This document shows positions 28,899-32,678 of a stretch of DNA of 64,000 nt, piece by piece (position 1 is the first letter of the stretch; each line of letters opens with the position of its first letter). The stretch lies in the NCBI RefSeq assembly GCF_003334785.1, contig NZ_QOWV01000013.1; one strand, 5' to 3'. The stretch is from Escherichia coli (GTDB taxonomy: Bacteria > Pseudomonadota > Gammaproteobacteria > Enterobacterales > Enterobacteriaceae). The notes below the pieces were generated by a model that was given only the letters and a program-made list of their open reading frames with translations, did no database searches and was not told the DNA's origin. The position numbers and the translations under genes are program-made.

Positions 28899-28996
28899 TT
28901 TTGCCTCCTTTCGCGCCACAAGAAATTAACTGTAGCGGGAAAGGATGGGTTTGGCTATGTGGCAAGGTATGAAGCCAGGTTAACGGTCACAAAAAT

Positions 28997-29782
28997 CTAC
29001 GCGTCTTCCTGGGGAAGAATGATTTCAATTTGGCTGTCTTGTAAGCGTGATTTTAGCGCAGCGGGCGGCAGCTCGTCGGTAAAGAGCGCAGTGACCTGTG
29101 CCACGTTACCAATTTCAACCGCCGCCGAAGCATGATACTTAGTGTGATCGGCGACCAGCAGAATATTTCTCGCGTGCGCCATCATCGTTTTCACCACGTT
29201 AGCTTCGTTTACATCAAACTCCATCAACGCGCCATCGCTCTCAATCGCCCCAACGCTTGTTACCAGATAATCAGCACGAAAATCAGCCACAAAGGACGCC
29301 GCTGAAGGGCCAATGATCCCGCTATTATGAGAGCGCAACGTACCGCCGGGCACCATCACTTCAAAGCGCGGGTTGTGGTAAAGAATATGCGCCACACGCA
29401 GGCTGTTGGTGATTATCCGCAAATGATTATGGTTAAGTAACGCCCGGGCAACATGCTCAACAGTCGTACCAATGGTGATAAATATTGTTGAACCATCAGG
29501 AATATAGTCTGCCACCGCTTCGGCAATCGCTTTTTTTTCCTCGGTTTGCGAAACCTCACGCTGCTCGAACGCCGTATTAACGACGCTGGAAGCCCGACCC
29601 GCGCCACCGTGATGGCGCGTAATCAGGCCTTGCTCGCTTAATTTACGAATATCCCGGCGGACCGTCTGCGTGGAGACATCCAGCAGATTTGCCAGCTCAT
29701 CAATATTCATATACCCACGCTCGGCGATCAGCATGAGGAGTTGGTCGTGCCGCGGGTTACCGGTTAGTTCGGTAAGGCTCAT
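28997..29782 (-). CDS. yihW: DeoR-family repressor of the sulfoquinovose cluster
   Basis: Track ORF 28997..29806; start at MSLTELTGNPRHDQLL (261 aa); N-terminal HTH and DeoR C-terminal domain; also named csqR. Confidence 0.88.
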   Translation of the reverse strand: MSLTELTGNPRHDQLLMLIAERGYMNIDELANLLDVSTQTVRRDIRKLSEQGLITRHHGGAGRASSVVNTAFEQREVSQTEEKKAIAEAVADYIPDGSTIFITIGTTVEHVARALLNHNHLRIITNSLRVAHILYHNPRFEVMVPGGTLRSHNSGIIGPSAASFVADFRADYLVTSVGAIESDGALMEFDVNEANVVKTMMAHARNILLVADHTKYHASAAVEIGNVAQVTALFTDELPPAALKSRLQDSQIEIILPQEDA

Positions 29783-29815
29783 GAAAATTCCTCGAAAAAC
29801 CATCACCCTGGCATT

Positions 29816-30712
29816 TTATACAAAAAGTGACAAAAAAGATCGGGTTTGATCACAGTCAGGGATCCCGGCTCGTCCACCGGGACGTGTGCATTTTAACGCC
29901 GCTACACCGCTGGCGAAGCGGACTGACTCCGCTAAATCCCCACTTGTTGCCAGCGCCACCGCCAAAGCGCCGTGAAAAACATCACCCGCACCTGTGGTAT
30001 CTACCACATCAACTTTGAAGGCCGGTTGATGCTGACGCCCACCATTTTCCAGCCAGTCGCAGCCTGCGCTACCCTGGGTCACATAGACATGACCATTTGT
30101 GAGCGTTTGTGCCTGTTTTAGCGCACTGGCCATCTCTTTCACGCCCGTTAAGCGCGCCAGACCCGGTTCTGAAAAGGCCGCGTGATCGCTTAATGCCACC
30201 AGCTCACTGATATCCTGCGGCGTAATGTCCCCGTCCAGAACGGTCATCACACCCGCCTGACGGGCCAGGGTGAAGGCTTTTTTAGCGCCGTCGTGCCAGC
30301 GTACATCTGCCAGCACAACATCCCACTGAGAGAAATCAATTTCCTCCAACCACTCTGCGTCAGGCAGCAGATCCGGGCTGGGGTAGTTAATGATTATCCG
30401 CTCGCCTTTGGTATCCACCATGATGGCGGATTGCGAAGATTTCGCCTGGTTATACCGTTTGGTGTAACGGGTGTTAACGCCCCAGGATTCCAGCTCTGCC
30501 AGCAGGCTGTTGCCCGTGTCGTCATCACCTACGCGACCAATAAAATCGACCTGCGCCCCCAGCCTTGCCGCCGCAACCGCTGCCGTCGCCGCTGGCCCGC
30601 CACCAACTTCCGTATAATTTCTCGCCACGTATTTACCGCTCTCCGTCGGTAACCCTTCCACGTAATAGATGCGATCCATCACGGTTATACCTACACAAGC
30701 AACACGAATCAT
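29816..30712 (-). CDS. yihV: 6-deoxy-6-sulfofructose kinase (PfkB family)
   Basis: Track ORF 29816..30718; start at MIRVACVGITVMD; PfkB motifs (DTTGAGD). Confidence 0.88.
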   Translation of the reverse strand: MIRVACVGITVMDRIYYVEGLPTESGKYVARNYTEVGGGPAATAAVAAARLGAQVDFIGRVGDDDTGNSLLAELESWGVNTRYTKRYNQAKSSQSAIMVDTKGERIIINYPSPDLLPDAEWLEEIDFSQWDVVLADVRWHDGAKKAFTLARQAGVMTVLDGDITPQDISELVALSDHAAFSEPGLARLTGVKEMASALKQAQTLTNGHVYVTQGSAGCDWLENGGRQHQPAFKVDVVDTTGAGDVFHGALAVALATSGDLAESVRFASGVAALKCTRPGGRAGIPDCDQTRSFLSLFV

Positions 30713-30718
30713 GGTCAT

Positions 30719-30879
30719 TCCTTAAACATTTTGGGATGCGTTCATTTTAATTTCACCAATTGTTTAAAAAGTGACGGCTGTCAATTTTTTGACGATAAAT
30801 TACAAATACGGTCAAAAACAGACAAGTAAAGCATGTCATAAATGACAAAAAGTGACATCACTGTATTCAGGAGAGGGTT
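30719..30879. promoter_or_regulatory. yihV/yihU divergent promoter region with repeated AAAAAGTGAC motifs
   Basis: aaaaagtgac at 30766-30775 and 30847-30856, with local palindromes (tgtcataaatgaca, gtgacatcac); candidate operators for the DeoR-type regulator. Confidence 0.4.
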
Positions 30880-31683
30880 ATGGCAGCAATCGCGTTTATC
30901 GGTTTAGGACAAATGGGTTCGCCAATGGCGAGCAATTTATTGCAGCAAGGGCATCAACTTCGCGTCTTTGATGTGAACGCCGAAGCTGTGCGGCATCTGG
31001 TAGACAAAGGTGCGACTCCCGCCGCCAACCCGGCGCAGGCCGCTAAAGATGCCGAATTTATCATTACCATGTTGCCGAATGGCGATCTGGTGCGCAACGT
31101 GTTGTTCGGTGAAAACGGCGTTTGCGAAGGCTTATCTACCGATGCGCTGGTCATTGATATGTCCACCATCCATCCGCTGCAAACCGATAAATTGATTGCC
31201 GATATGCAAGCCAAAGGCTTCAGCATGATGGATGTTCCGGTAGGCCGTACTTCTGCAAATGCCATTACCGGTACTCTGTTACTGCTGGCTGGCGGCACCG
31301 CTGAACAAGTTGAACGTGCCACACCGATCCTGATGGCGATGGGCAGTGAGTTGATCAACGCTGGCGGTCCGGGCATGGGGATCCGCGTTAAGCTCATCAA
31401 CAACTACATGAGCATCGCGCTCAATGCGCTTTCGGCAGAAGCCGCCGTTTTGTGCGAAGCCCTGAATCTTCCCTTCGATGTTGCCGTCAAAGTGATGAGC
31501 GGTACCGCCGCCGGTAAAGGTCACTTCACCACTTCCTGGCCAAACAAAGTCCTCAGCGGAGATCTTTCTCCCGCCTTCATGATCGATCTTGCCCATAAGG
31601 ATCTTGGCATCGCCCTTGATGTCGCCAACCAGCTGCATGTGCCAATGCCGCTGGGGGCCGCCTCACGGGAGGTTTATAGCTAG
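30880..31683 (+). CDS. yihU: 3-sulfolactaldehyde reductase, C-terminally truncated by an in-frame amber codon (267 codons; 30 intact codons continue to 31776)
   Basis: Translation matches recalled YihU through ...ASREVYS, then TAG where I recall a Gln codon; downstream frame reads [30 protein letters not shown] then TAA at 31774-31776. Confidence 0.85.
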
Positions 31684-31799
31684 GCGCGCGCAGCGGGTCG
31701 CGGTCGCCAGGACTGGTCCGCCATTCTGGAACAGGTCCGTGTCAGTGCCGGGATGACTGCCAAAGTAAAAATGTAACGACTGGATAAAGGAATAAATGA

Positions 31800-32678
31800 A
31801 TGAATAAGTACACCATCAACGACATTACGCGCGCATCGGGCGGTTTTGCCATGCTGGCGGTCGATCAGCGCGAAGCCATGCGCATGATGTTTGCCGCGGC
31901 TGGGGCACCCGCTCCGGTAGCCGATAGCGTTTTAACTGATTTCAAAGTTAACGCTGCAAAGGCCCTCTCGCCTTATGCCTCGGCGATTCTGGTAGATCAA
32001 CAATTCTGCTACCGCCAGGTGGTTGAGCAAAACGCGATTGCCAAAAGTTGCGCCATGATTGTCGCCGCCGATGAGTTCATTCCTGGCAACGGTATTCCGG
32101 TCGATAGCGTGGTTATTGACCGCAAAATCAATCCGCTACAGATCAAACAAGACGGTGGCAAAGCCTTAAAACTGCTGGTGCTGTGGCGTAGTGATGAAGA
32201 TGCGCAGCAACGTCTGGATATGGTGAAAGAGTTCAACGAACTGTGCCACTCACACGGTCTGGTAAGCATCATTGAGCCAGTCGTCCGCCCACCGCGTCGT
32301 GGCGATAAATTCGATCGCGAACAAGCGATCATCGATGCCGCCAAAGAGCTGGGCGACAGTGGCGCTGACCTCTACAAAGTTGAAATGCCGCTTTATGGCA
32401 AAGGTCCGCAACAAGAGCTTCTCTGTGCTTCACAACGTCTGAATGACCATATCAATATGCCATGGGTGATCCTCTCTTCCGGTGTCGACGAAAAACTGTT
32501 CCCGCGTGCCGTACGCGTGGCAATGACGGCGGGCGCATCGGGATTCCTGGCAGGCCGTGCAGTCTGGGCATCGGTCGTCGGTTTACCAGACAACGAGCTG
32601 ATGCTGCGTGACGTTTGCGCACCGAAATTACAACAACTTGGCGATATCGTCGACGAAATGATGGCTAAACGCCGCTAA
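31800..32678 (+). CDS. yihT: 6-deoxy-6-sulfofructose-1-phosphate aldolase
   Basis: 292-aa ORF, class I aldolase family. Confidence 0.88.

Follow-up and report, generated by a model that had tools for sequence, protein, structure and literature searches.

GlpR, the closest Escherichia coli paralogue of CsqR (YihW) by NCBIfam, binds cooperatively and with looping to arrays of 10-bp half-sites (about WATGTTCGWT), some of them in coding sequence. CsqR itself matches the NCBIfam DeoR/GlpR models with E = 2e-76. Its best model is the GlpR-type PRK10906 with 257 bits, below the cut-off of 331, and CsqR is thus not GlpR. The CsqR orthologues match Pfam HTH_DeoR (PF08220) and DeoRC (PF00455). In the repeats described below the core would be TGTCA/TGATCG, versus TGTTCG in GlpR.

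By analogy, the closest precedent for the array proposed here for CsqR is FruR of Bacillota, also a DeoR-family regulator of a sugar pathway and, like CsqR, released or remodelled by a sugar derivative. At each promoter, FruR occupies four to eight 10-bp direct repeats, TGAWWGWTTT, lying side by side across the −35; the units, with TG at the 5′ end and a T-rich 3′ end, lie over the −35/−10 region (PMC11906611). The TG...TTT layout of FruR recurs in the putative CsqR units TGTCACTTTT, TGTCTGTTTT, TGATCGTATT, and TGTAATTTAT, and a 10-nt phasing may be common to both. On the other hand, the core word is TGTCAY in CsqR and TGAWWG in FruR. Unlike the FruR operator, the CsqR array would mix direct and inverted units (with a 24-bp palindrome), and it would serve two divergent promoters together with an autoregulated third; the individual CsqR units are predicted.

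The CsqR circuit is already known at the level of DNA fragments (Shimada et al. 2019; Gao et al. 2021), with the same loci, repression, autoregulation, and release by sulfoquinovose. In gSELEX and EMSA, CsqR binds the yihU/yihV spacer, strongly, and the DNA preceding yihW. The effectors that release it are sulfoquinovose, sulfoquinovosyl glycerol, and sulforhamnose. All three transcription units are repressed by CsqR (csqR being autoregulated), and on the probe it forms large cooperative complexes that are polymer-like (PMC8249747, PMC8006165, PMC12608037). There is also one in vivo footprint. In the published work, binding is defined by a fragment or by a 41-bp ChIP-exo interval. A full-text literature search found no CsqR recognition sequence or decamer (Shimada et al. 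2019, outside that search, may define sites); PMC10991401 contains none of the terms “consensus,” “operator,” “footprint,” and “palindrom.” The present analysis shows the repeat family, its placement, and its conservation. A known regulator–target circuit is refined at the site level, and this is no surprise.

The window, which is the whole 64,000-nt stretch of E. coli DNA analyzed, contains the yih (sulfoquinovose) cluster in the reverse strand relative to K-12 (Table 1). Strain JKHS016 is 100% identical to the stretch, which occurs at ≥90% identity in about 4000 complete E. coli genomes. An Rfam scan of positions 28900–31900 gives nothing at E up to 1, which excludes a known RNA element for the region of the repeats.

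Table 1. Genes, promoter elements, repeat units, and projected in vivo binding interval at the csqR–yihV–yihU locus (positions in the window)
Feature	Position	Strand	Remarks
csqR (yihW)	28997–29782	−	DeoR/GlpR-family repressor; RefSeq annotation; ATG 29780–29782
csqR promoter block within yihV 3′ end	29813–29854	−	CRP-like, site 1, −10
csqR −10 TATAAA	29815–29820	−	includes yihV stop codon
yihV	29816–30712	−	stop codon 29816–29818
Site 1, GTCACTTTTT on csqR-sense strand	29822–29831	−	exact match; last yihV codons
CRP-like TGTGATCAAACCCG	29838–29854		adjoins site 1
Intragenic yihV block, codons 198–208	30089–30121		TGTGAGCGTT-TGTGCCTGTT on + strand
yihV/yihU spacer	30713–30879		167 bp
Putative yihV −10 hexamer TAAAAT	30744–30749	−	majority 0.99; TSS ~30737–30739
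Site 2, GTCACTTTTT	30766–30775	−	exact match; right arm of 24-bp palindrome
Inverted copy GTCAATTTTT	30780–30789	+	one mismatch; partner is site 2
Projected YihW ChIP-exo peak	30793–30833	.	accurate to about 1 nt
Invariant block, consensus TGATCGTATT-TGTAATTTAT	30795–30814	−	under ChIP-exo peak
Degenerate copy TGTCTGTTTT	30815–30824	−	within ChIP-exo peak; over yihU start −62/−63
Tandem partner of site 3, TGTCATTTAT	30838–30847	−	10 bp downstream in yihV sense
Site 3, GTCACTTTTT	30847–30856	−	exact match; 24–33 nt upstream of yihU ATG
yihU	start 30880	+	

The decamer AAAAAGTGAC occurs in three exact copies in the window, all on the + strand. In 100 dinucleotide-preserving shuffles, the mean is 0.19 copies and the maximum one, and none of the 100 has three. 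With three exact copies against 0.19 expected, chance is excluded. Both the count, obtained here by exact search, and the placement relative to yihV, csqR, and yihU agree with what the first-pass annotation of this DNA had reported. Copy 1 is within the final five codons of yihV, with the csqR/yihW ATG 40 nt further downstream in the csqR sense, and copies 2 and 3 are inside the yihV/yihU spacer; an exact 13-mer, ACAAAAAGTGACA, is common to copies 1 and 3. In the following, the three copies are called sites 1, 2, and 3.

Copy 3 had been placed within two palindromes. Inverted repeats are indeed present, namely tgtcataaatgaca (30834–30847, a 6-bp inverted repeat with a 2-nt center) and gtgacatcac (30852–30861, with arms of 4 bp only, where K-12 has GTGACATAAC), but they are without conservation outside Escherichia. 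Both are Escherichia- or strain-specific. A one-mismatch inverted copy, GTCAATTTTT, was absent from the first-pass annotation. Together with copy 2, it forms the 24-bp palindrome AAAAAGTGAC-GGCT-GTCAATTTTT (30766–30789). There are at least six related copies at the two regions, versus the three noted before.

All three decamers are inside DNA that is experimentally bound by CsqR and released by sulfoquinovose, at the fragment level only. Across the cluster, the decamer is confined to these two CsqR-bound regions. That the other promoters of the induced cluster in the window are without a copy counts against the array proposed below. One-mismatch copies of the decamer elsewhere in the window lie outside the promoters of the cluster and were set aside. 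In Enterobacter and Citrobacter, further GTCACTTTTT matches are found downstream of csqR, at a distance of about 3.3 kb; they fall within an ORF of 329 aa and are, therefore, a coding coincidence.

The mapped transcription starts are at −25/−27 from the ATG for yihV, at −27/−28 for yihW (with a CRP site at −41.5 relative to the TSS), and at −15, −25, −35, −62/63, and −82/92 for yihU; CRP binds both regions in vitro (PMC5816610). At yihV, csqR, and yihU, the repeat units lie over core elements of the promoters. Site 1 is in the spacer of the csqR promoter, at about −14 to −23 relative to the mapped start, since the blocks follow each other in the order CRP-like TGTGATCAAACCCG, TTTTTTGTCACTTTTT, GTATAAAAT. 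Site 2 is where the −35 element of the yihV promoter would be (about −28 to −37 relative to its TSS). The mapped yihV promoter is without a good −35 hexamer, and TAAAAT is probably its −10. A scan with the sigma-70 consensus gives no promoter including the decamers; site 2 is still at the −35 position of yihV. At yihU, the starts fall on site 3 (which covers those at −25/−35), on its partner, on the copy at 30815–30824, and on the stretch 30785–30804, so that units lie over the starts at −25, −35, −62/63, and −82/92.

Conservation was followed in 67 loci encoding CsqR relatives, with one genome per species, of which 62 were aligned. The exact word GTCACTTTTT is present at the site 2 position in about 45 of the 67 loci and at the site 1 position in about 35. 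On the csqR-sense strand, the conservation of sites 1 and 2 extends over more than 20 genera. At site 1, TGTC is invariant in the 62 loci and ACTTTT almost so; at site 2, the mean column majority is 0.94. In the last 13 codons of yihV, which make up the site 1 block, third-position conservation reaches 0.94 versus a gene mean of 0.59. The conservation of sites 1 and 2 could come partly from promoter function. The exact decamer of site 3 occurs, among the 67 loci, only in Escherichia, Mangrovibacter, Superficieibacter, and Rahnella; outside those genera, the region is conserved only as TGTCA-N5-TGTCA. In orthologous clusters, where the first-pass annotation had advised a search, the motif is thus recovered for copies 1 and 2 but not for the exact form of copy 3.

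The other units of the spacer are conserved to different degrees. The tandem partner of site 3 has a TGTCA majority of at least 0.8 in the 62 loci and matches the 12-mer of the csqR promoter at 9 of 12 positions. The degenerate copy at 30815–30824 matches the site 1 12-mer at 10 of 12 positions, with a mean majority of 0.92. The adjacent block at 30795–30814 has a mean majority of 0.98 in the 62 loci, the highest of the spacer; the version present in the window is TGACCG, a rare variant. In the alignments, a near-invariant 80-bp block reads TTGTCTGTTTTTGATCGTATTTGTAATTTATGGTCAAAAAATTGACAGcCGTCACTTTTTAAACAtTTggTGAAATTAAAAT.

A strong YihW ChIP-exo peak is reported at NC_000913.2 4071641–4071681 with a signal/noise of 168 (PMC8464067, supplementary file 5). 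The peak was transferred to the window by means of the yihV start (4073739 in NC_000913.3) and of the spacer, which has identical length. The projected interval is between sites 2 and 3, and it overlaps no exact decamer and not the 24-bp palindrome, only the degenerate copy and the invariant block TGATCGTATTTGTAATTTAT. At 29822–29831, no ChIP-exo peak is reported (PMC8464067). The first-pass annotation expected a footprint at the decamers, and the published peak maps elsewhere. The peak is the only in vivo datum at nucleotide resolution, and nothing else speaks as strongly as its position against the exact decamers being primary sites. The claim that the decamers are YihW operators is favored by the published fragment binding, by the promoter overlap, and by the conservation of copies 1 and 2, but the peak misses all three copies and the T-run of copy 3 is unconserved. 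The proposed autoregulation is in line with the published fragment-level data.

The decamer is best read, from sequence comparison, as a half-site plus a T-rich flank, and not as the operator itself: the peak misses the decamers, the T-run and palindromes of copy 3 are unconserved, only the core is kept in distant lineages, and there are at least six related copies. The definition of the half-site and the contacts of CsqR at these particular bases are inferred.

Several counts describe the repeat family. The density of TGTCA/TGACA peaks in the spacer (four per 170 bp, versus 1.4 per kb for the background in the 64-kb window). In an unbiased 5-mer test, TGACA/TGTCA or GTCAC is ranked first or second in 7 of 8 lineages; in K-12, TGACA is observed 5 times versus 0.78 expected. 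The best 12-mer shared between the region upstream of csqR and the spacer is anchored on site 1 in 62/62 aligned loci. Its targets in the spacer are site 2, site 3 and its partner, the copy ending at 30824, and the inverted copy. There are 4–5 such matches per spacer in the main lineage (P 0.000–0.004 vs. shuffles), and in the distant lineages the 12-mer similarity is non-significant against shuffles. Among the TG–TG lags, 10 nt ranks first in 7 of 8 lineages (P from <0.002 to 0.13); this measure, like the half-site definition, was framed after inspection of K-12, and the lineages are related by descent. Along the array, the phase is broken in places, and one unit is inverted. No significant 10-nt period is seen in a plain autocorrelation of the spacer, and a simple EM motif search collapsed onto the T-runs and was uninformative.

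Five distant lineages were compared: the short-cassette E. coli, Dongshaea, Limnobaculum, a metagenomic contig (L072), and L076. The short cassette yihU-yihV-csqR has 65% DNA identity and occurs in 1327 of 5426 E. coli genomes in a different downstream context (typA). In L076, the homologue is 56% identical and the gene layout is the same. Two further loci with 48% identity (L077 and L078), outside sulfoquinovose clusters or on short contigs, were left out. Down to 67% identity, the lineages have an unchanged recognition helix, VSTQTVRRDIRKLS. In orthologues with the same helix, only the core TGTCA/RTCAC is kept and not the T-run; the full decamer and site 3 are not universal. The distant DNA keeps TTTGTCAC at site 1 and RTCACT at site 2, and the T5 run varies, with CTCTTT, CTAATT, and GTTTAT among its forms. 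The palindrome core TGAC-A-N3-RTCAC is kept in all lineages examined, as is GTCAC/RTCAC at sites 1 and 2, and the decamer core co-occurs with csqR orthologues in every one of them. TGATCnTATT-TGTAATTTAT is kept as well; the block at 30795–30814 persists in short-cassette E. coli, Dongshaea, Limnobaculum, and L072 and is degenerate only in L076. In the short cassette of E. coli AH19D088 (L069, 2540–3710), site 2 is ATCACTAATT and site 1 is GTCACTTTAT, and the yihU-proximal module of site 3 in the short cassette is on the opposite strand.

In several lineages that keep csqR, yihV appears disrupted. The yihV of Dongshaea marina is split into two PfkB ORFs (L070, 5068–5963); in L072 (5295–6000), the gene is absent or degraded; and in Candidatus Symbiopectobacterium endolongispinus (L064), it carries a long G-run insertion (alignment A3, columns about 412–430).

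We propose, with a probability of roughly 0.6, that an array of CsqR half-sites of about 10 bp, TGTCAY(T)n, overlaps all three promoters. The decamers would be the best E. coli copies of a repeated half-site, with TGTCAY in the yihV/csqR sense followed by a T-rich tail. The array would comprise a tandem pair at yihU, a degenerate mid-spacer copy, a palindrome on the −35 of yihV, and one copy at csqR. In the absence of sulfoquinovose, CsqR oligomers would bind the array and the invariant block cooperatively and cover the −35/−10 elements and the starts of yihV, yihU, and csqR, so that RNA polymerase would be excluded. Sulfoquinovose, its glyceryl glycoside, or sulforhamnose would then cause CsqR to be released. 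Few organosulfur compounds are as abundant as sulfoquinovose, whose breakdown in E. coli and relatives is switched by CsqR. An operator model at the nucleotide level would allow regulon prediction in other genomes and the design of sulfoquinovose-responsive reporters. It would also help to explain the Nissle-type locus, with its degenerate or inverted copies in the short cassette. At that locus, its own YihW is bound weakly and there is no induction (PMC12608037). Site changes of the L069 type may be related to this weak binding and non-induction in Nissle 1917.

An alternative, which we hold to be unlikely, is that the central invariant block TGTCTGTTTT-TGATCGTATT-TGTAATTTAT (30795–30824) is the sole true CsqR operator. 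The decamers would then be kept for the −35 of yihV, for the spacer and extended −10 of csqR, and for T-tract bending, without specific contact to CsqR. The ChIP-exo peak coincides with this block and has no decamer, no other part of the spacer is as well conserved as the block (0.98), which survives in the 65%-identical cassettes, and sites 1 and 2 coincide with promoter elements. However, the yihV/W fragment bound in EMSA is without TGATCGTATTTGTAAT, and the word it has in common with the spacer is TGTCACTTTTT. Promoter spacers are normally free to vary, whereas the TGTC in the csqR spacer is invariant. The inverted module of site 3 in the short cassette suits a protein site better than promoter geometry, and in L076 the block is degenerate while the palindrome is kept.

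An extended CsqR repressosome, formed on the palindrome, the half-sites, and the central block and perhaps looping to sites in coding DNA, is quite unlikely in our estimate. The coding sites would be the last 13 codons of yihV and the intragenic block at 30089–30121, and, if true, they would resemble the operators that GlpR and DeoR have within genes. In the intragenic block (consensus AAAAAAGCACAAACGCTCACAAATGGACATGT), third codon positions are conserved at 0.9, which places it among the top 1% of the gene; its conservation at synonymous sites is as strong as that of the csqR promoter, and it retains non-preferred codons. An inverted 12-mer, CACAAACGCTCA, is common to this block and to Enterobacter-type spacers. 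In the short-cassette, Dongshaea, and Limnobaculum lineages, there is no conservation of the block.

It is improbable that another protein, either CRP or a nucleoid protein (IHF, Fis, H-NS) drawn by phased A/T tracts, is what the decamers serve. The region is A/T-rich, and GGTCAAAAAATTG resembles part of the IHF consensus, which is WATCAANNNNTTR. CRP does bind both regions in vitro, with its site at −41.5 of the csqR promoter. Yet the decamer does not match the cAMP-CRP dyad TGTGA-N6-TCACA, and the CRP-like TGTGATCAAACCCG is a separate element adjoining site 1. In the 64 kb, the decamer is also confined to the two regions bound by CsqR, and the word co-occurs with csqR orthologues in all lineages examined. 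For the invariant block, CRP, IHF, and Cra were considered and gave no convincing match (by eye, with their consensus sequences). Finally, the three copies could be taken for a chance recurrence or for a functionless duplication of recent, local origin, given the ease with which short A/T-rich words recur and the few genera with the exact form of copy 3. This view is effectively refuted by the conservation of copies 1 and 2, which spans more than 20 genera and includes synonymous sites, and none of the 100 shuffles has three copies.

Apart from the half-site array that we favor, minor YihW ChIP-exo peaks are reported at ssuE (signal/noise 8) and glpA (signal/noise 14) (PMC8464067). In K-12 (NC_000913.3), they are at about 997548–997578 and 2352631–2352636, respectively. 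The first is the promoter of a sulfonate-utilization gene and the second is a GlpR-regulated promoter. The TGTCAC word is absent from both minor peaks, a point against the array; the peaks may be cross-talk or noise. Among the sequences collected, an 885-bp contig filed under Bacillus coahuilensis (L055) has a fragment 100% identical to E. coli CsqR and is almost certainly an assembly contamination.

In the strain of the window, codon 268 of yihU (31681–31683) is an in-frame TAG, where K-12 has Gln, and the reductase is truncated to 267 of 298 residues. In the identical strain JKHS016, yihU is annotated as a pseudogene (“internal stop”). The spacer differs from that of K-12 at three positions (30811, 30827, and 30859), and one of these differences changes the almost invariant TGATCG into TGACCG, with loss of a GATC site. 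The exact 61-bp central segment of the window occurs in 5 of 5426 complete E. coli genomes. Given the stop codon in yihU and the rare spacer variant, the sulfoquinovose locus of this strain may be decaying.
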